Positions 4,859 to 46,948 of a DNA stretch of 64,000 nucleotides are shown piece after piece. Made by a program: the position numbers and the translations under genes. The stretch lies in the NCBI GenBank assembly GCA_963820525.1, contig CAWGAA010000003.1, forward strand, positions 192,001-256,000. The letters run 5' to 3'. The notes beneath the pieces were generated by a model. It was not told where the DNA came from and made no database searches. It saw only the letters and a program-made list of their open reading frames with translations. This stretch comes from an uncultured Spirochaetota bacterium. GTDB lineage: Bacteria; Spirochaetota; Spirochaetia; SZUA-6; Fen-1364. Numbering within the stretch: the stretch's first letter is position 1; each line of letters begins with the position of its first letter.

Positions 4859-6388
4859 CTACGTTTCCTGGGCGTTTTTCTCCGGTTGGGGGTCATCCGG
4901 CGGCGCTGAGGAGCCATGGCGGATCTCAGAGGGGTAGCGGCCGAAGTGCTTCAGGAACAGCCTGCTGAAGTGGCGAACGCTGGAGTAGCCCACGGCGCGC
5001 GCCGCATCCTGAACTTGAATCCCGCCGGACAGAAGGTCCCGAGCCTTCTCCATGCGCAGGCGCGTCACGTACCTGACGAAGGTCTCCCCGTGCACGCTGT
5101 GGAACAGGGTGCTGAGGTAGTTTGGGGTGACTCCGAGGCGATATGCGATCTGTGCGACGCCCACATCGTTCATATAGTTGGAGCCGATGAAGGAGAGAGC
5201 CTGGTCGACGAGGCCGGCGGGCCCGTCGCCGCGTTCGAATGCCTGGATCGTCTCTCCCTGGGATTCAAGCGAACGAATCCAGCCATCCTCTTGGGGCGAT
5301 GACGGCGGCTGGACTCCAACGGAGAATCGCAGGAAGCGCTCGATGTTCTGAATGACAGGATCGCCATGGGAGAGCGGGGCAAGTCCTTCGAAGGTCTTCC
5401 GAGCCCGTTGGACCGCGGCAAGGAACTCAAGCCGATTGCTCTGCCGCCAGGCCAGGACCACCTCATTGATGCTTCGGCACAATGGGGCGAGCCGACGCTC
5501 GGCGTCTTCGGCATCGGCGAGGAGAATCAGCCGCCCGATCCCGAGCGCGGCCCGAAGAGGGGCAAGCCGATCTGCCGCGGCGAGCTCTCCCGGGAGCTCC
5601 GCAAAGGAGGCGCACGGGCGGCCTGCCATGACGGTGACGCGAAGCGCTTCACCGCCCGCCGAATCGAGAACGACCTGAAGCGTCTTCAAGAGGCCGCGTA
5701 CGGCCTCCCGGGCCGCGGCTTCCTCCGCGTCGGGCTGCCAGGCGCCAACCAGGGCGAGATGACCCTCGGGCAGCGTGCACAGGGCGATGCGCAATCGCGA
5801 GTCGACGGTGGAGATGATGCGGGACCTGATTTCGCGGCAGGCGGTAAGCTGCCGATCCGCCAGCGCCCTCTCCTCCAGGGCGCCGTCAAACAGAACAAGG
5901 GCGCCTTGAAACCGCGCGTCGGAGATGAACTCACGCTGCTCCTGCGAGAGGGAGAGGGTGTTGTGGAGGAGCGAATTGAGGCGGCTCTCGAACTCGTCAT
6001 TGGCGCGCAGGAGGTCCCGCCTCCGCTCGCCCTCCATCTTTCCGATCACCCGCCGCAGGTCCTCGGGGCTGACGGGCTTCAGCAGGTATTCCGCGGCGCC
6101 TAGCTCCAGCGCCCGCTTCGCGTAGTCGAAGGAGGAGTGGCTGGTAAGGATGATCCAACACGTGCCCGGAGACACGAGGCGGCCGCGCTCGATCCCGGCC
6201 AGTCCGTCCATTCGGGGCATGCGGATATCGACGAAGGCGATGTCGGGGGCCAGGCGGGCGGCCATCTGGAGCATCTCTTCGCCGTCGGAGGCGGCGCTGA
6301 TGGAGCGGGCGGGAACGCCGATCTCCTCCAGCATGCTCTTCAGGCCGTAGCGAACGAGCCGCTCGTCATCCGCAATCAGCACCTTCAC
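4859..6388 (-). CDS. Response regulator with receiver domain and AraC HTH (YesN-like)
   Basis: ADDE...DIRMPRMDG receiver; C-terminal NYLSTLF...GYSSVRHFSRLF AraC HTH. Confidence 0.9.
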   Translation of the reverse strand: MKVLIADDERLVRYGLKSMLEEIGVPARSISAASDGEEMLQMAARLAPDIAFVDIRMPRMDGLAGIERGRLVSPGTCWIILTSHSSFDYAKRALELGAAEYLLKPVSPEDLRRVIGKMEGERRRDLLRANDEFESRLNSLLHNTLSLSQEQREFISDARFQGALVLFDGALEERALADRQLTACREIRSRIISTVDSRLRIALCTLPEGHLALVGAWQPDAEEAAAREAVRGLLKTLQVVLDSAGGEALRVTVMAGRPCASFAELPGELAAADRLAPLRAALGIGRLILLADAEDAERRLAPLCRSINEVVLAWRQSNRLEFLAAVQRARKTFEGLAPLSHGDPVIQNIERFLRFSVGVQPPSSPQEDGWIRSLESQGETIQAFERGDGPAGLVDQALSFIGSNYMNDVGVAQIAYRLGVTPNYLSTLFHSVHGETFVRYVTRLRMEKARDLLSGGIQVQDAARAVGYSSVRHFSRLFLKHFGRYPSEIRHGSSAPPDDPQPEKNAQET

Positions 6389-8351
6389 GCCTGCCCCCCT
6401 CCGATGGGGATCTCCATCGAAACCCTGGTTCCCTGCCCCGGCGCTCCCGTCACCTCCAGACGCGCGCCGGGATAGGCCGTGAGCAGCCGCTCCCGCACAT
6501 TGGCCAATCCTATCCCCCGATCCTCGCCCTGCCCGTCCGTCGAAATCCCGATCCCGTCATCGACAACGGAGATGCCCAGCGTTGTCGAGCCGTTGCTGCG
6601 GATGACATGCGCTTCCACGGTGAGCTTGCCCGGCCGGTCGAGCGGCTCGATGCCGTGGATGACCGCGTTCTCCACCAGGGGCTGGAGGATCAGCTTGGGG
6701 ATGCGGAAGGGCGCCGCCTGCGGATCGAGGAGGCACTCCGCGCTCAGCCGCTCGGCGAAGCGCATCCCCTGAAGCTCCAGATACCGCTCCAGAAAGCGGA
6801 ACTCCTCTCCAATGGTCGTCCAGTTTCCCGCGTCCAGGATGTAGCGCAGCATGTCCTTCAGCGAGAGGATGGCCTTCTCCAGGCTCTGTGCATCGCCCAT
6901 CCGGTTGAGGCCGATCAGCCCATTCAGCACGTTGTAGAGGAAGTGGGGCTGGATCTGAGACTGAAGTGCCCGGTATTCCGCCTCCCTCTTGGTCAGCAGC
7001 TCCCGGTACTTGTAGTAGTTGTCGATGATGAGGCCGGCATGTTCCGCGAAAGTGCGGAAGTTGGTGTAGTCCAGGTCCGTGAGCGGCGGCTCGTTCTCCC
7101 CCGTGACGATGCAGAGCATGCCCACCATCCCCTGCGACACGCACAGCGGAAGGGCGAGGAAGGAGCCGACCGTCCCGGCCGCGTCCAGGGAGCGTGCCTC
7201 GCGCACGAACACCGTTTCCTTTCGTTCAAAGATTTCGTGGAGGACGATCGCTTTTGCCGGCGAGGCGGCAGCAGCCGGCGCGCGGCCCGCGATGGGAACC
7301 GGCTCGCCCGCGGGATACGGAAACGCGCCGGCGGAACGCGCAACGGCCGGCCTGCCCTCGGGGTCCGCCGCGATGACGGCGGCGCCTCCCGCGTGAGAAT
7401 CCTTCACCGCCGCTTCCACGATGAGCTCCAGGATCCTCTCGAAGCTCGGCCTGTCCGTGATGCTCTGCCCCACATCCCTCATGAGGCTCTGGATGGAATC
7501 GACGTTCCTCTTGAGGTCCGTCATGAAGAGGTTGAAGCTCGCCGCCAGCGCGCCCAGCTCGTCGGTGGAGCGCACGTCCAGGCGCGCCGTGAAATCCCCG
7601 TGGGAGACCCTGCGAAATCCCTCCTCGACGATCTTGATCCTGAGGGAGATCCTGCGGGCAAAGCCGATGGAGAGCGTGACGGTGGCAGTGCCGATGACGG
7701 CGGTGAGGGTCCAGAAGAGGATCAATATCTGCCGGCGGATCAGGTCGCTCTCCTGTCGGAGCGAACTGATGAAATGGGAGAGGAAGCTCTCGAAGCTGTA
7801 GGTGAGGTAGTAGGACGTCTCGCGCGCCTCGTCGAAGAAGAGGGGGATCGACGGGTCTCCCTCGGTCTGAAGCTGGTGGTAGAGGCTCCCCTCGCCGCCG
7901 ACTCCGGCTTCAAAGAGACTGTCGATTTTACGCTGGAAAGAGTCGATGCGCTTGGAGGCTTTGGAGATCATTGTTCCTGCAATCTGATAGGCGTCCCGGA
8001 AGCTCCGTCTCCCGGAGCAGCGCCTTGACCCGGGGCGATTCCATAAAACGGGAGGTGGCGCTTTCGAACTCCACCATCGCGGCGCGGAAGTCGTTTCGCG
8101 TGGTTTGGGAACGAGGGGTATGCAGCACGTCCTTGAGCAGCAGGTAGGTCTGCGGCGTGAAGAGATCGAACAGGAGGTCACTTCATCAATCCGTGGAGCC
8201 TGCTCGCGGATGCGATGAGCTGGGATCCGCTTTCGATCGTGTCGCGCAGGCGCGCCGTCTCGCGCATTGTCCAGATGGAAAGGCCCATGATAAGAAGCGC
8301 GCCCAGGAATACAACTCCGGTCAGGATGGAAATCTTGGACCTGAGCCTCAT
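6385..8351 (-). CDS. YesM/LytS-type sensor histidine kinase (TM, HAMP, GAF, His_kinase, HATPase), with two +1 frameshifts near 8180 and 7997
   Basis: ATG 8351 gives MRLRSKISILTGVVFLG (TM). The product continues across three frames. QSQIQPHFLYNVLN and QPLVENAVIHG present. 1967 nt minus 2 is a multiple of 3. Confidence 0.8.
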
Positions 8352-8457
8352 GGAAGTGAGTATAGCAGATCACGCCAAGCCGGTCAGAGCGGGCGGCCGG
8401 CTGGAGCTCCATTGCTCGGGCCCGGTTGCGGCGAACACGCTGCGGAACGTCGGGCGT

Positions 8458-9348
8458 TCAGCGCCCCTTCATGATCCAGGAGAGAGTCTTGTAGAGCAGC
8501 TTCGCTGCGGCGAACTCGGCCATGTGGAGCCCCGGCCGCGGGGCAAGCTCCACGCAATCGAGGGCAACCACGGTCGCGGAGCGCGCCACGGCCCGAAGGA
8601 TCAGGCACGCCTCGGCCCAGGAAAGCCCGTCCGGCTCAGGAGTGCCCGTGGCCGGGATTACTGAAGGATCGAGGCCATCCACGTCTATAGTGAGGTAAAC
8701 TTTCTTCCCTTTGACTGCGCGAGCAATCTCGCCTTCGAGGCGCGTGGGTTTCATGCCGTGGATTGCCTCCGCCGAAAACAGGGAAACCCGGCGAGGGTTC
8801 TCCTTGATGAAAGCAGCCTCTTCGAGGGAATACGAGCGAATGCCGATCTGGACCGCGCGCTCAACGTTCTCTTCCAGCACCCGCCTCATGGCGCATGCAT
8901 GGCTGTAGCCCGTCCCGGAGTAGCTTTCCCGAAGATCGGCATGAGCGTCGAGCTGCACGACCACCAGGGGCTCCGACAGCGTGCGCCCGACTCCGCGCAC
9001 CACGGCGGGCGTTATGCTGTGCTCGCCTCCCAGGACCAGGAGGAGCTTTCCCGCGCGAGCAACGGCTTCCGCGGCGTCCGAGATACGGCACATCATTGCC
9101 TGGGCATCCGGATCCTGTGAAAGCTCGGGGAGGGTGTGCACGCCGTATCCCAGGGCAGGCTCGCCGCCGAGCTCGGCGTCGAAGAGCTCGACCTGCTGGG
9201 ACGCTTCGATTATGGCCCGCGGTCCGAGTCGCGTGCCGCCCTCATAGCTCACCGTGGCCTCATAGGGGATGGGAAGCACGTGGACCCTCGACCCTTCCGG
9301 CGCGCTCATCTGCGGCGGCAGGCCGAGAAAACCGTCGATCTGGGACAT
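8458..9348 (-). CDS. speB: Agmatinase (ureohydrolase)
   Basis: GGEHS, DAHAD, DVDGLDPS and GTPEPDG motifs. Confidence 0.9.
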   Translation of the reverse strand: MSQIDGFLGLPPQMSAPEGSRVHVLPIPYEATVSYEGGTRLGPRAIIEASQQVELFDAELGGEPALGYGVHTLPELSQDPDAQAMMCRISDAAEAVARAGKLLLVLGGEHSITPAVVRGVGRTLSEPLVVVQLDAHADLRESYSGTGYSHACAMRRVLEENVERAVQIGIRSYSLEEAAFIKENPRRVSLFSAEAIHGMKPTRLEGEIARAVKGKKVYLTIDVDGLDPSVIPATGTPEPDGLSWAEACLILRAVARSATVVALDCVELAPRPGLHMAEFAAAKLLYKTLSWIMKGR

Positions 9349-42069: not shown

Positions 42070-43073
42070 TCAGGAAACAAGCGCCGGGAGTCCGAGGGAG
42101 TCAAAGAAAGCATTCGGTAGCGCACGGGTCAGAGCGGGGCTGTTGCTCAGCCTCCATGGTCCGTGCGCACTCCCTACCGTCTCTGCGGCAAGGTCTACAC
42201 TGATCCCCCGGTTCCTTAGCTCTTTGAAGCGGATCTTTCCACGCCTCCACTGCTTCCAGAGGAAGCAGCGCAGCCGCCTTCGGGTCCACCCGTCCAACGT
42301 GCTGAGTATGCTGGGGGTCTCGCAGAATCCGAAGTAGCCCCGCCATCCGATCATGTACCTGCGAAGCTCTCCTATCATCCGCTCGATACTGATTCCGCGT
42401 GTTCGCCGCGTCAGCTCACGAATTCGTTCCTTGAAGCGGAGGATGGATTGGGGCGCCATACGCCTCCTGATCACCTCCCCGCTGGTGAAGCTGAATCCGA
42501 GAAACTTCCGATTCCTTGGCCGCGCCACCGCGCTCTTTGATTCGTTCACCTTGAGCTTGAGCCTTCGAGTGAGAAAGCGCTTCACGCCTTCCATCACCCG
42601 TTGACCCGCTCGCTCGCTCTTCACGTAGATATTGCAATCATCCGCGTAGCGAACGAAACGGTGTCTGCGTTGCTCCAGCTCTCGGTCTAGCTCGTCGAGC
42701 AGCAGGTTGGAAAGAAGGGGGGAGAGGGGTCCGCCTTGCGGCGTGCCTTCCCCCGTCGGTCCCACTAGTCCGTTCTCCATCACTCCAGAGTTCAGAAACC
42801 CTCGGATCAGTTTCAGCATACGCTTGTCACTGATCCTTTTGGCTACGCGACTCATCAACACGTCGTGGTTCACACGGTCGAAGAACTTCTCCAAGTCAAT
42901 GTCCACGACCCAGTCGTAGCCTTGCTGGATGTACTCTTGCGCCTTCACCACTGCCTGGTGTGCCGATCGCCCAGGCCTGAATCCGAAGCTGAACTCGCTG
43001 AACGTGGGGTCCCACCGCTTTTGCAGCACCTGCAGCACCGCCTGTTGCACGAATCGGTCTCCCACCGTCGGGA
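42070..43073 (-). pseudogene. ltrA: Group II intron reverse transcriptase/maturase, 3' part
   Basis: PTVGDRFVQQA, DIDLEKFFDRV, GTPQGGPLSPLL, RYADD, GWRGYF; no endonuclease domain. Confidence 0.93.
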
Positions 43074-43385
43074 CGGTCAACGCTAAACGCACTCTTGCAC
43101 AACGCCGATTTGGGATCGGCCAAAGTCACCCACCCCTTCCATCCGCTCCGTCACCAAAGCTTTAAAATCCTCAAGACACGGAAGGTCGCAGGAATGGATA
43201 CCCTGATCCTTCAAGGAACTGAAAATGGTACATTCGCCGTTCCTCGGGAATGGACCGATCAAGCAGACCCATGCCTATTCGATTCACGCAAACGAGCTGT
43301 CCCTATCTTCTCCTTCTCCTGTCTCCGAGAGTTGCTCGACCTGGTCGATCGAATTGGGAACGGAAAAAATTGCGAAAGGTATTGA
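43074..43385 (+). CDS. Small element protein (DUF5372-like, VTHPFHPL), with no strong start in the integrated state
   Basis: VTHPFHPL...VPREWTD. The frame is open back to the left junction; only TTG codons lie upstream of the motif. Confidence 0.7.
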   Translation, partial: RSTLNALLHNADLGSAKVTHPFHPLRHQSFKILKTRKVAGMDTLILQGTENGTFAVPREWTDQADPCLFDSRKRAVPIFSFSCLRELLDLVDRIGNGKNCERY

Positions 43386-43436
43386 CAAATGCATAAAGCC
43401 TTAGTAGAATCTGTACAGTTTATTAACTGTACAGAT
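43382..43436 (+). promoter_or_regulatory. Sigma70 promoter with overlapping palindromic operator
   Basis: TTGACA (43382)-17 nt-TAGAAT (43405); 12-bp IR ATCTGTACAGTT-tatt-AACTGTACAGAT at 43409-43436. Confidence 0.8.
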
Positions 43437-43776
43437 GAACCTACAGGAAAAATCGACAACCTTCTTACGAAGAAGGCGAACCTCCCTCCTCACCCAGGTA
43501 GCCGCTATCGACCCCCACATCCTCCGTGGCTCTCTCATCGAACGCTACATCCGTTGTGGAAAACCAGAATGCAAGTGCGCACGGGGCTCTGGTCATGGCC
43601 CCAAGTACTACCTGTCCGTCAGTTATCCCGATCAGAAACCCCAGCAAGACTACGTTCCTCAGCAATTCCAGAAACTCGTTGTACAGTCTCTCGCCAACTA
43701 CCAAAAACTGAAAACCCGCATAGAAACCATTTGCGACATCAATCGGGAACTCCTGCGAAGGAGGGAAGAGTCCTAA
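43435..43776 (+). CDS. Small Cys/His protein (DUF6788-like), possibly zinc-binding
   Basis: LRGSL.ERY.RCGKPECKCARG.GHGP.YYLS pattern seen in mobile-element accessory proteins. Confidence 0.75.
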   Translation: MNLQEKSTTFLRRRRTSLLTQVAAIDPHILRGSLIERYIRCGKPECKCARGSGHGPKYYLSVSYPDQKPQQDYVPQQFQKLVVQSLANYQKLKTRIETICDINRELLRRREES

Positions 43777-44341
43777 ACCACCCCCGACTTAAGTCGGGGG
43801 GTTTGCGCTTGTCGGCTAAAGCCGACTGGGGCCGACATCACGGTTCTACTTTGAAGTCGGCATCTTGGTCCCGCTCTGTGTCCTGCTGATTCTCGATGTA
43901 GCGGGCGATCATCTCTTCGGTCACGTTCCCTGTGCTCGCCACGAAATACCCGCGGGCCCAAAGATGCCTGCCCCAGAATGTTTTGTTCAACCCTTTGTTT
44001 TCCATGAGCAGCTTCCGTGATGTCAGCCCCTTCATGCGCTGCACGAGCCTGGATACCGATAGAGTCGGCGGCACGCTCAGCAGCAGATGCACGTGATCGC
44101 GGCTGATGTTCCCTTTCACGATCTCTACGTCCAGGCTCGCGCAAATCATTCGTATCAGATCTCTTACGCGGGTTCCTATCTCTTTCCCCAACACTGGCTT
44201 GCGGTACTTGGTGATCCACACTATATGATACTTCAAATCATAGACGCAGTGCGACGCTTTTCGATACTGCTTCATCGTACCGCAAGCCTACTAAAGTCTT
44301 CGTCTAAAGACGAGGGGGTTTCTCCCCGTAGGAGACTCTAA
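43773..44341 (-). mobile_element. IS200/IS605-family element (tnpA only)
   Basis: Subterminal hairpins at 43781-43800, 43811-43826 and 44300-44313; CTAA at both junctions. Confidence 0.88.
43838..44275 (-). CDS. tnpA: IS200-family Y1 (HUH) transposase
   Basis: YHIVWITKYRK, DHVHLL, WARGYF, YIENQ. Confidence 0.95.
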   Translation of the reverse strand: MKQYRKASHCVYDLKYHIVWITKYRKPVLGKEIGTRVRDLIRMICASLDVEIVKGNISRDHVHLLLSVPPTLSVSRLVQRMKGLTSRKLLMENKGLNKTFWGRHLWARGYFVASTGNVTEEMIARYIENQQDTERDQDADFKVEP

Positions 44342-44471
44342 CAGATGGATGCCTCGCTCTCCAGCCAGATTCCCGTCGATATCGAGGCCGTCGCAACAAT
44401 CCTGGCCAATATGCTCCATGGTCATTTGGCTACGAGCAAAGGTTGCACGATGGATCTTTGGGAGGATATCG

Positions 44472-46541
44472 ATGATGACGAAAATCACTGCGACCCATAC
44501 AGACCGAATGGCGTATGTCTACCTGCGCCAATCGACCATGGGGCAGGTCCTCCACCATCAGGAGAGTACCGAAAGGCAATATGCTCTGAAGAACCGCGCC
44601 TTGCAATGCGGTTGGACGACAGACAAAATCAGAGTCTTGGATGGCGACCTGGGCATCTCGGGCGCCCACATGACCAATCGGGAGGACTTCAAGTCCTTGG
44701 TCGCGGACGTCTCCCTGAACAAGGTGGGGGCGATCTTCGCCCTAGAAGCCTCACGACTGTCCCGTTCCTCCAACGATTGGAATCGCCTCTTCGAGTTGTG
44801 TTCACTCACCGATACTCTGATAATCGACGAGGACGGATGTTACAACCCCACCGATTTCAACGACCAGCTGCTGCTGGGCTTGAAGGGGATGATGTCGCAA
44901 GCCGAATTGCACTTCATCCGCGCCCGCCTCCAAGGGGGAAAACTGAACAAGGCCAAGCGAGGGGCGCTTCATTTCCCCCTACCCGTCGGATACTGCTACG
45001 ATGAGGAAGGCACGATCGTTCTGGACTCCGACGAGGAGGTCCGCAGTGTCGTGAAGCTTATGTTTGATACATTCCAGCAGACCGGTAGCGGCTACGCGGT
45101 TGTCAAAAAGTTCACCCATCTGAACCTGAAGTTTCCCAAACGTGCCTACGGAGGAGTCTGGAAGGGCAAGCTCATCTGGGGACGACTGACATACGAGCGA
45201 GTGCACGGTATCCTGAAGAACCCTTCCTATGCGGGCGTGTACGTGTACGGACGCTACAAATACAGAAAAATCCTATCGACAGACGGCGGCATTTGCTCCA
45301 AAATAGAGTCCGTGCCGATGTCCCGCTGGCAGGTGACCATCAAGGACCATCATGAGGGCTATATCAGTTGGGATCAATTCCTTCACAACAACATGATCCT
45401 GCAGCAGAACCAGACCAACGGGATTGAAACGATGCTCCCTTCTGCTGCCAGAGAGGGAATCGCCCTTCTTCAAGGCATGCTCATTTGCGGAATCTGCGGG
45501 CGACGCCTGACCGTCCGCTACCAAGGCAACGGGGGGCTCTATCCCATCTACGAATGTAACTGGCGCAGACGGGAAGGGCTGGCGGATAAATCCTGCATGA
45601 TGTTCCGCTGCGATATCGCCGATGAGACAATAAGCGTACGCCTCCTCGAAGTATTGAAGCCGGAGCAGTTTGAGCTCGCGCTGAAGGCGATGGAAGAGGT
45701 CGAGAATCGGAACAAGGCGATTGATGCGCAATGGCGTATGAGAGTTCAAAGGGCCGACTACGAAGCGTCCCTGGCCCAAAGGCGATATGAAGAAGTCGAT
45801 CCGTCCAATCGCCTGGTCGCATCCACGTTGGAGAAACGCTGGAATGAGGCTCTCATAAACCTCGAGCAGGTCAAGCAGCAGCATCGGGAGTTCAGCCAAA
45901 AAGAGCAGATGGTAATGACTTCTGAGCAACGGCAGAAGGTATTCGCTCTGGCGCTGGATCTGCCACGTCTTTGGAAGGCGCCAACGACCCAGGCAAAGGA
46001 TCGAAAGCGCATCCTCAGGTTGCTTATCAAGGACATCACTGTTCAAAAGCTTGCCGAACCGAAAAAGCTCATCTTGCACGTGCGCTGGCAGGGGGGTGCC
46101 ACGCAAGACATCTCATGCGATTTGCCTCCAAAGGCGTGTGACAAAATCCGGTATGGGCAGGAGATTGTCCAGAAGGTCAAAGATCTCGCGAAAAATATGC
46201 GAGATGATCAAATAGCCGAGGTATTCAATAAAGAGGGACTGATCAGCTCGAAAGGAGGACAGTTCACGGAATCTAAGATACGTAATATCCGGAGTACCCA
46301 TGCTATTCCCTCGCCCAAACTGAAACATCCGGAAGAACTCACTATCAAAGAAGTCGCCGACAAGTTTAAGGTTAGTACGCAGGTCGTCTATTATTGGATA
46401 GAACGAGGATATGTGACAGCTCGAAAAACGAAGTATGGGTTACCGTTCTGGATCACACTTAAAAACCAAGATGAAGAAATACTCCGAAGACGTGTCGCTG
46501 AGTCATATAAACTCAACGAGGTGAAAACTTCACATTCCTAA
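44472..46541 (+). CDS. Large serine recombinase (resolvase, recombinase, zinc ribbon, coiled coil, C-terminal HTH)
   Basis: AYVYLRQST, D.GISG, EASRLSR, ILKNPSYAG, LLQGMLICGICG, LTIKEVADKFKVSTQVVYYWIERG; GGAGG SD before ATG 44472. Confidence 0.95.
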   Translation: MMTKITATHTDRMAYVYLRQSTMGQVLHHQESTERQYALKNRALQCGWTTDKIRVLDGDLGISGAHMTNREDFKSLVADVSLNKVGAIFALEASRLSRSSNDWNRLFELCSLTDTLIIDEDGCYNPTDFNDQLLLGLKGMMSQAELHFIRARLQGGKLNKAKRGALHFPLPVGYCYDEEGTIVLDSDEEVRSVVKLMFDTFQQTGSGYAVVKKFTHLNLKFPKRAYGGVWKGKLIWGRLTYERVHGILKNPSYAGVYVYGRYKYRKILSTDGGICSKIESVPMSRWQVTIKDHHEGYISWDQFLHNNMILQQNQTNGIETMLPSAAREGIALLQGMLICGICGRRLTVRYQGNGGLYPIYECNWRRREGLADKSCMMFRCDIADETISVRLLEVLKPEQFELALKAMEEVENRNKAIDAQWRMRVQRADYEASLAQRRYEEVDPSNRLVASTLEKRWNEALINLEQVKQQHREFSQKEQMVMTSEQRQKVFALALDLPRLWKAPTTQAKDRKRILRLLIKDITVQKLAEPKKLILHVRWQGGATQDISCDLPPKACDKIRYGQEIVQKVKDLAKNMRDDQIAEVFNKEGLISSKGGQFTESKIRNIRSTHAIPSPKLKHPEELTIKEVADKFKVSTQVVYYWIERGYVTARKTKYGLPFWITLKNQDEEILRRRVAESYKLNEVKTSHS

Positions 46542-46570
46542 AGGCTGATATAGGAGGTGCAGTATGAATA

Positions 46571-46948
46571 CACCGTCGGGATGCCGAGTTTCCTCGTGCC
46601 TCCTCCCGCCTTGGGTATCTCCACTCGTCTCACGGGCTGGGGCTTGTACGCGCCCGCAATAAGCTGCTCCTTCAGTCGCGGCCAGTTCTCCCGCAGGAAC
46701 TCAGGTAGTTCCTTGACGCTCATGCCGTCAATCCCTGCCGCCCCTGCGTTGGCTTTCACGCGTCTCAGTGCTTCCTTCAGGTTCTCCTTCTCGCATGCCT
46801 CCTCGATCAGCTTGTCCGTGTTCGCTTGGCTTTCCGCGCTGAGTTTCGCCGTCGTGGATTCGATCCCTTTCTTGGGCGTCACAGGGGCTTCACCCCTTGC
46901 CTCGCCCTCGAAGGCCAGTTCATGCTGGATTTTCTGTCGCTTGTCCAC
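46571..46948 (-). pseudogene. ltrA: Group II intron reverse transcriptase/maturase, 5' part
   Basis: NL..A.RRVKAN.GAAGIDG, YKPQPVRRVEIPKAGGGTRKLGIPTV. Confidence 0.93.

Follow-up and report, generated by a model that had tools for sequence, protein, structure and literature searches.

A DUF5372 gene with its start signals and its body at opposite ends of a serine-recombinase element: a gene probably completed by excision

Where does translation of a gene begin when its reading frame is open up to the very edge of a mobile element and has no convincing start codon within it? The question is raised by a 64,000-nt stretch of DNA from an uncultured Spirochaetota bacterium (assembly GCA_963820525.1, contig CAWGAA010000003.1, positions 192,001–256,000 of the forward strand), referred to here as the window. 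An element with a gene for a large serine recombinase (LSR) lies in it, inserted into the reverse-transcriptase (RT)/maturase gene of a group II intron. The frame at the left edge of this element encodes a DUF5372 protein, and a ribosome-binding site with an ATG stands at its right edge. An earlier interpretation made from the letters alone (the sequence-only reading) had proposed that the two are joined in frame on the excised circle. From the sequence comparisons described below, the best explanation, and one that we consider probable, is that the start signals at the right end and the body at the left end belong to one gene, the last cistron of the element's operon, and that full-length DUF5372 would be a product of the circular (attP) state only.

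Start signals and gene body at opposite ends of the element

The features on which the argument turns are the following.

43063–43073: left 11-bp copy of the sequence common to attL and attR, with the crossover GG at 43070–43071
~43071–46579: mobile element, interrupting the group II intron RT/maturase gene (minus strand)
43072–43116: left attachment (att) arm, wholly within the DUF5372 frame, with inner GACGGT, outer CGCAC (43088–43092) and outermost TTTGGGAT (43109–43116)
43074–43385, plus strand: DUF5372 gene body, 103 codons and a stop, open from the element boundary and ending in TGA (43383–43385)
44472–46541, plus strand: LSR gene, 689 aa, stop at 46539–46541
46534–46579: right att arm, with outermost TTCCTAAA (46534–46541), GTGCA (46557–46561), inner ACCGTC (46572–46577) and the crossover GG (46578–46579)
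46552–46581, plus strand: Shine-Dalgarno site AGGAGGT (46552–46558), 5 nt, ATG (46564–46566) and the first six codons, to 46581

The left open reading frame (ORF) matches PF17342 over model positions 1–77 of 78 (E 8.3e-19; 67.8 bits, cut-off 25). The domain begins at 43125, which is residue 18 of the translation from 43074, and no ATG precedes it; the only start listed for the ORF, a TTG at 43095, is not preceded by a purine-rich stretch. At the other end of the element, the ATG sits 22 nt past the LSR stop and, in the integrated state, opens just a 32-aa ORF (46564–46662). When the two ends are joined, the frame runs without a stop from the codons at 46564 through 43074 to 43385, a total of 6 + 103 = 109 codons. 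Read from the sequence, attP therefore splits the gene, with the ATG at 46564, the crossover at 46578–46579/43070–43071 and the body at 43074–43385. The sequence-only reading had described this layout correctly: the coordinates of the Shine-Dalgarno site, the ATG and the in-frame join all hold, as do the short peptide of about 32 aa opened by the ATG in the integrated state, the want of a good start in the left ORF and the likeness of the latter to DUF5372. A single in-frame join has a chance of 1 in 3 of arising by accident, so the case beyond chance rests on the relatives.

Read from the sequence, the joined ends would form the palindrome ACCGTC-GG-GACGGT around a central GG. A palindrome of this kind with a 2-bp crossover is the usual look of a serine-recombinase site. 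Mirror symmetry between the two arms is seen at the inner ACCGTC, at GTGCA (17–21 nt out) and at ATCCCAAA/TTTGGGAT (approximately 38–46 nt out). A conservative exchange of the LSR type, with a 2-bp crossover, no target duplication and imperfect inverted-repeat arms, would account for this arrangement. The core repeat of the sequence-only reading was found as 11-bp copies at 46571–46581 and 43063–43073, but it does not represent a target duplication; it is the sequence that attP and attB share around the crossover GG. The arms reach approximately 45 bp from the crossover on each side, about twice the length of those of phage serine-integrase sites. The LSR has an additional C-terminal helix-turn-helix (MerR/HTH_17 matches at residues 621–654, below the Pfam cut-off), which might read the outer ATCCCAAA/TTTGGGAT motif.

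The two ends in related elements and the competing explanations

Species-representative genomes were scanned with a DUF5372 alignment, which gave at least 599 matching stretches; at least 494 of these passed tblastn and the best 80 loci were analysed. The 80 loci are mutually related and the counts that follow are thus not counts of independent events. They come from Acidobacteriota, Planctomycetota, Gemmatimonadota, Verrucomicrobiota, Alpha-, Beta- and Gammaproteobacteria, Desulfobacterota, Chloroflexota, Actinomycetota, Bacillota, Nitrospira, Omnitrophota and one archaeon, with protein identities of 37–70%. The LSR gene lay downstream of DUF5372 on the same strand in 70 of the 80 loci; of the other ten, six were cut by contig ends and four were remnants. 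A DUF6788 gene lay between the two in 60 of the 80. Many of the loci were separate contigs of approximately 3 kb that began with DUF5372, as would be expected of a repeated element. The element was multi-copy in some genomes, among them those of the cultured Rhodococcus opacus DSM 44188 and Alicyclobacillus sp. ALC3. In Rhodococcus opacus there were four copies with unrelated flanks and with the element ends fixed at the same bases as in the window; the differing flanks show that the element has moved.

At the left end, loci were aligned at the invariant THPFHP motif, and the 57 nt (19 codons) from its H codon back to the boundary were compared in 72 distinct loci. Between the boundary and the H codon, stop codons in the DUF5372 frame were found in none of the 72. 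The other two frames each contained a stop in 37 of the 72 loci (50 and 52 stop codons, in each case over 10 columns). Because this region is full of conserved DNA motifs, the expectation was obtained by shuffling bases within alignment columns: 22.4 ± 3.0 loci with a frame-0 stop were expected against 0 of 69 observed, the lowest of 2000 shuffles gave 12, and frames 1 and 2 lay at their shuffled means. Just outside the boundary, stops resume immediately in many loci.

There was no ATG, GTG or TTG in the 19 codons in 26 of the 72 loci, and an ATG in only one. The commonest internal candidate, a TTG at codon −7 (41/72; TCG or TGG elsewhere), falls inside the TTTGGGAT arm motif, the mirror of the right-end ATCCCAAA. 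None of the internal start positions was conserved. Translation from the TTG of the window, which the sequence-only reading had set against its own proposal, is poorly supported, as its position (codon −12) holds a start codon in just 7 of the 72 loci. The upstream flanks do not supply one either: 48 of 64 had no in-frame ATG before the first stop, and an ATG with a Shine-Dalgarno-like 4-mer was seen in a single flank of the 64.

For the right end, the LSR stop was located in 62 loci, giving 55 distinct right ends. A common motif was present in 52 of these, the consensus of which ends ...ATCCCAAA-N14-GGAGGTGCA-N-TATG, followed by 11 nt and then the crossover; the three without it (L009, L032 and L040) look decayed or different. 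Conservation of the terminal GGAGGTGCAGTATG in homologues, by which the sequence-only reading had proposed to judge its claim, is borne out, since this is essentially the consensus of the 52 motif-bearing ends. At the start position, 14 nt from the crossover, there was an ATG in 48 of the 55 right ends and a GTG in three, and one further locus (L070) had ATA there with an in-frame ATG two codons later. A Shine-Dalgarno-like 4-mer was found 5–16 nt upstream of the start in 50 of the 55. In 19 of the 55 the ATG and the LSR stop overlapped in the sequence ATGA, as is classic for genes coupled in translation, and elsewhere some stops overlapped the Shine-Dalgarno site.

When each locus had its own ends joined by script, the frame was open in 55 of 55 loci, and the frame preservation across attP on which the sequence-only reading had staked its case therefore holds in the relatives. 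The same dinucleotide was found at the predicted crossover of attL and attR in 50 of the 55 loci (GG 37, CC 8, TT 4 and AC 1). Elements of the CC class use the same RT motif in the opposite orientation, which is as expected if the central dinucleotide sets polarity. The distances of 14 nt from the ATG to the crossover and 61 nt from the crossover to the H codon, together 25 codons, were kept in 65 of 70 distinct left ends.

As the start signals lie within an att arm, their conservation can be compared with that of the mirrored bases in the other arm. The three ATG positions of the right arm had A 48/G 3, T 51 and G 50/A 1 of 51; the mirrored positions of the left arm had T in 57 of 69, any base (T19 G14 A16 C20) and G in 45 of 69. 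The Shine-Dalgarno purines were informative in the right arm only. Since the left arm has no mirror image of the ATG or of the Shine-Dalgarno site, recombinase binding alone is not a sufficient explanation for their presence.

We therefore favour an arrangement in which the att site, roughly 45 bp on each side, spans the 5′ end of the DUF5372 gene. Integration would leave the start codon, its ribosome-binding site and some five codons at the right end, after the LSR gene, and the remainder of the gene at the left end; in the chromosome, DUF5372 would then have no start codon of its own. Excision would join the ends again and make DUF5372 the last cistron of the operon, often translationally coupled to the LSR gene through the ATGA overlap. 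We infer from these features the formation of the circle, the start of translation at the right-end ATG and an action of DUF5372 on the recombinase or its partners.

A number of points weigh against this interpretation. The regulatory consequence is drawn from DNA alone. The spacings are fixed within a rigid att architecture, so the preservation of frame is not independent evidence. In five of the 55 loci the crossover dinucleotide was not common to both ends, being one base off or divergent. One relative, from an Omnitrophota metagenome-assembled genome (L032, ~5968–8732), has its own in-frame DUF5372 ATG and no right-end motif; att-like motifs were absent at both of its ends and its DUF6788 lacked its cysteines, and it may be a fixed or decaying copy. 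In the window copy, a nested IS200-like insertion sequence lies inside the operon, and this copy may be silenced, inactive or immobile, with transcription into the LSR gene blocked.

The remaining points of this kind also speak for the strongest alternative, that a weak non-AUG start yields DUF5372 in the integrated state and that the right-end signals are kept for recombinase binding or for ending LSR translation; the circle would then at most raise the level of the protein. Some internal in-frame TTG, GTG or ATG was present in 46 of the 72 loci, mostly the TTG at codon −7, and annotation pipelines call such starts: that of NCBI begins DUF5372 of a Burkholderia plasmid at a GTG 12 codons before the H codon. 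The PF17342 domain is complete without the N-terminal extension, which is poorly conserved as protein and has a mean pLDDT of 48 over its first ten residues, so that initiation at a weak internal TTG or GTG would give a shorter protein with the whole domain, and low-level synthesis in the integrated state is conceivable. Finally, GTGCA, an arm motif with a mirror counterpart at the left, directly adjoins part of the Shine-Dalgarno site. Nevertheless, we regard this explanation as unlikely. It provides no start for the 26 of 72 loci that lack such a codon, and the codons that do occur are at no conserved position. A frame that is open to the exact boundary (stops in 0 of 72 loci, where approximately 22 would be expected) is left unexplained, as is the absence from the left arm of any mirror of the Shine-Dalgarno purines and of the first two bases of the ATG. 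Furthermore, all four motif-bearing right ends without an ATG at the conserved position keep an in-frame start (GTG in three, a later ATG in one).

A second alternative is that the right-end signals serve the integrated state, by producing a short outward peptide or by re-initiation that affects the LSR mRNA or the flank, and that the open frame at the left end is a by-product of the att site. The integrated ATG does open a short ORF, and the left end is dense in conserved DNA motifs regardless of codon position. We consider this very improbable, since column composition predicts frame-0 stops in approximately 22 of 69 loci and none was seen. An outward ORF would moreover not be expected to be conserved, as its continuation is flanking DNA, and in one sense-oriented locus (L014; read by eye, and this locus only) the frame of the ATG differs from that of the RT. 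That the in-frame join is a coincidence without consequence, which a 1 in 3 chance would allow for one element, is scarcely credible when the same signals, spacing and open frame recur across phyla at 37–70% identity, including elements with other crossover dinucleotides and targets.

Transcription, gene products and insertion target of the element

The element and its flanks contain the following further features.

42070–43073, minus strand: 3′ part of the interrupted RT gene and left half of attB (RVT_1, E 6e-40; GIIM, E 6e-21)
43382–43410, plus strand: sigma-70-like promoter TTGACA-17-TAGAAT, 11 of 12 matches, overlapping the DUF5372 stop
43409–43436: operator-like perfect inverted repeat (12 nt, gap of 4 nt) that ends on the DUF6788 ATG
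43435–43776, plus strand: DUF6788 gene, 113 aa, Cys-rich (PF20586, E 2.8e-26; 92.1 bits, cut-off 27.2)
43773–44341, minus strand: nested IS200-like insertion sequence, with tnpA at 43838–44275 (Y1_Tnp, E 1e-43)
44345–44482, plus strand: first ~45 codons of a small conserved ORF, overlapping the LSR start, from alignment with a related locus (L006)
46571–46948, minus strand: 5′ part of the interrupted RT gene and right half of attB, from the ORF 46538–46948

The plus-strand order within the element is thus DUF5372, DUF6788, the IS200-like insert, the small ORF and the LSR gene. The promoter at 43382–43410 was the best promoter-like site within 42900–46800. Many relatives keep a −35 box in the last DUF5372 codons and have a related palindrome, of the CAGACCAGT-N6-ACTGGTCTG type, between the −10 box and the DUF6788 start (both read by eye and not counted). 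No terminator-like site was found on the plus strand between the promoter and the right end. While the element is integrated, its internal promoter would drive DUF6788, the small ORF and the LSR gene, and transcription would then exit through the right end; on the circle, the same transcript would be predicted to run on into DUF5372. The sole strong promoter-like site is internal and no circle-junction (Pjunc) promoter was found; as the Shine-Dalgarno site and the ATG are 14–26 nt from the right end, there is no room upstream of them for a promoter split at the joint.

We searched for the joint itself in metagenome assemblies and in sequencing runs. A strict degenerate pattern of the right-end motif followed by the left-end motif found no circle joint in metagenome contigs. 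Two matches to a looser pattern (L086 and L087) were set aside as chance, since tblastn found no recombinase or DUF5372 nearby. The blank in assembled data says little, as short-read assemblies are expected to break at such repeats. The sequencing runs that matched parts of the stretch were 13 metagenome DNA runs, with no RNA run listed, and the contigs of four runs placed on the stretch contained no joint leading back from the right end to the left. A 151-nt contig (depth 2.6, 8 differences in 86 letters) that skips from 43062 to 46571 was rejected as proof of excision; it represents an uninterrupted related RT target.

The LSR gene product has all three domains of its class, each above the cut-off: Resolvase (PF00239, 64.2 bits, cut-off 23.3), Recombinase (PF07508, 64.0, cut-off 21.1) and Zn_ribbon_recom (PF13408, 39.0, cut-off 25.3). 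Its serine at residue 21 was invariant in 32 sequences. The two accessory proteins are less readily placed. DUF5372 is modelled (pLDDT 79) as a small beta-barrel with a helix after it, and with the N-terminal extension at low confidence; it had no Foldseek match at E ≤ 0.001, and VIA-align gave only small beta-barrels of the SH3/KOW/Tudor type at Z 5.0–6.2, within the background range. DUF6788 (pLDDT 93.8) is modelled as a helical hairpin around a small Cys-bearing sheet, and returned only helical-hairpin background (Z ≤ 7.5) and no Foldseek match. NCBIfam has no name for either family, and the protein atlas returned DUF5372 clusters only. In the searches run, neither accessory protein resembled a known recombination directionality factor (RDF) by family or fold.

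What might a protein made only on the circle do? The sequence-only reading had thought of a possible directionality or circle-maintenance factor, which is a conjecture. A switch from excision to re-integration, or shutdown of the operon, is a tentative suggestion for DUF5372. Our preferred guess is a circle-state switch, which would act on the recombinase, on DUF6788 or on the operator, since excision must occur with the proteins of the integrated state alone and re-integration occurs when DUF5372 can exist. A wider reading, which is possible and somewhat speculative, is of a widespread and undescribed family of elements the size of an insertion sequence (IS) that targets an intron RT motif and senses its own topology, with DUF5372, present only after excision, flipping the reaction from excision to integration. 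In that case DUF5372 might, for example, neutralise an excision factor such as DUF6788, or act on the recombinase or the operator.

The element as a whole is best explained, in our judgement with good probability, as a compact IS-like integrative element of approximately 2.9 kb without its IS200 passenger, moved by the LSR through a 2-bp crossover. In its own genome the recombinase element is single-copy. The IS200-like passenger is present in five copies altogether, the other four being 100% identical; it sits immediately after DUF6788 and immediately before the small ORF, and supplies the DUF6788 stop codon. The small ORF (approximately 45 aa) has a P-x-D...ANML-like motif, and tblastn matches to it were found at the same place in 36 of the 80 loci. 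Of these matches, 32 were in frame +2 relative to the LSR gene; their E-values were weak (0.007 to 8) and position was weighed alongside score. In two relatives, a second and more distant serine recombinase (31–39% identical) lies just upstream of the element (L028, 3753–5738; L041, 3577–5349).

The two RT pieces of the window (ORFs 46538–46948 and 42070–43092) adjoin the insertion and, as read from the translations, concatenation of their products restores the RT motif; the RVT_1 and GIIM matches correspond to the larger piece. By tblastn, RT pieces were found next to both element ends in relatives. In 56 of the 80 loci, the window included, an RT-like match adjoined an element end, always at one and the same position of the RT protein, with the RT antisense to the element in 41 and sense in 15. 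The targeted RTs were only 28–70% identical to that of the window, and the target is thus a conserved motif rather than one particular intron. The window's own genome has a second match to the back-translated target motif (C3:720148–720164, L089), which may be an unoccupied target in another intron copy.

Comparison with known systems

Members of the family have been annotated before under other names. On rhizobial and Burkholderia plasmids the gene is labelled 'DUF5372' or 'Y4bD/Y4pK family protein', and its start codon is chosen ad hoc. These genes are of the same family and belong to the same four-gene element; one copy, on the complete plasmid of Burkholderia sp. PAMC 26561 (L088, 4470–7469), splits an RT gene, and all of this is known from annotations only. 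Among 15 plasmid hits (H1–H15), five had no feature under the match and a sixth record had no annotation at all, although the gene table is incomplete and this is only a hint that the ORF is overlooked by gene callers. Gene callers appear to start or miss DUF5372 arbitrarily, and the present finding corrects the annotation. In the literature searched, no paper mentioned DUF5372, DUF6788 or the y4b/y4p names in this sense (y4bD, y4pK, y4bA and y4pH gave unrelated matches only), and there was no description of a start codon parted from its gene body across a serine-recombinase circle junction.

With no fewer than 494 matching stretches in species-representative genomes, the family is a common one, and it lives mostly as a parasite of group II introns, which are themselves mobile elements. 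The arrangement offers a testable handle on DUF5372 and DUF6788, two families without a known role, and bears on how the direction of transposon-like serine recombinases is controlled, which is relevant to genome engineering.

The phages phiC31 and Bxb1 are LSR elements with an RDF. The present element resembles them in its LSR, which has the Resolvase, Recombinase and zinc-ribbon domains, and in the small accessory proteins whose genes lie next to that of the LSR. It differs in that no accessory protein is RDF-like by family or fold, in its att arms of about twice the usual length, and in being IS-sized and sometimes multi-copy.

Transcription across the joint that depends on the state of the element is familiar from Tn916. 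For the integrative and conjugative elements (ICEs) ICEKp1, ICEclc and ICEEc1, a published account describes transcription from one end that crosses the joint of the excised element into genes at the other end (PMC13023037). All of these elements are large and use tyrosine integrases; only the supply of a promoter changes and the genes keep their own start codons, unlike the arrangement proposed here.

In other elements the joint itself creates an expression signal. Tn4451 likewise uses a large serine recombinase, and a circle-junction promoter for TnpX of Tn4451 and Tn4453 was reportedly described by Lyras and Rood in 2000, to go by the title of their paper. In IS1111/IS110, according to a published description, the circle joint creates a promoter that has no counterpart in the integrated state (PMC11187229). 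Such promoters assemble −35 and −10 boxes for the transposase, whereas the promoter here is internal and intact in both states. In contrast to IS1111/IS110 and Tn4451, the joint would here assemble coding sequence with a ribosome-binding site and a start codon, for a gene that is not that of the recombinase.

A gene cut by its own element has a precedent in archaea. In the 'suicidal' tyrosine integrases of the SSV type (SSV1, pTN3, pT26-2), attP lies inside the integrase gene, and self-disrupting recombinases are stated in a review to occur only in archaea (PMC8371274). The likeness is clear: as portrayed there, attP is inside a gene of the element and the gene is whole only on the circular form (PMC8371274). 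In the SSV type, however, it is the tyrosine integrase that is split, into N and C halves, whereas here the serine recombinase is intact and no tyrosine integrase is divided. Instead, a small accessory gene is cut five codons past its start, which parts the start signals from the body, and the hosts are nearly all bacteria.

The novelty therefore appears to lie in a new combination of known ideas, namely a mostly bacterial serine-recombinase element with an accessory gene parted from its translation start. If the interpretation is correct, this would be a clean case, encoded in sequence, in which a mobile element tells its free from its integrated state through a gene put together across the joint of its ends, and a DUF5372 switch would amount to a built-in, protein-coded memory of the recombination state. 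Until now, the described cases of such assembly have been promoters and the archaeal integrases that disrupt their own gene.

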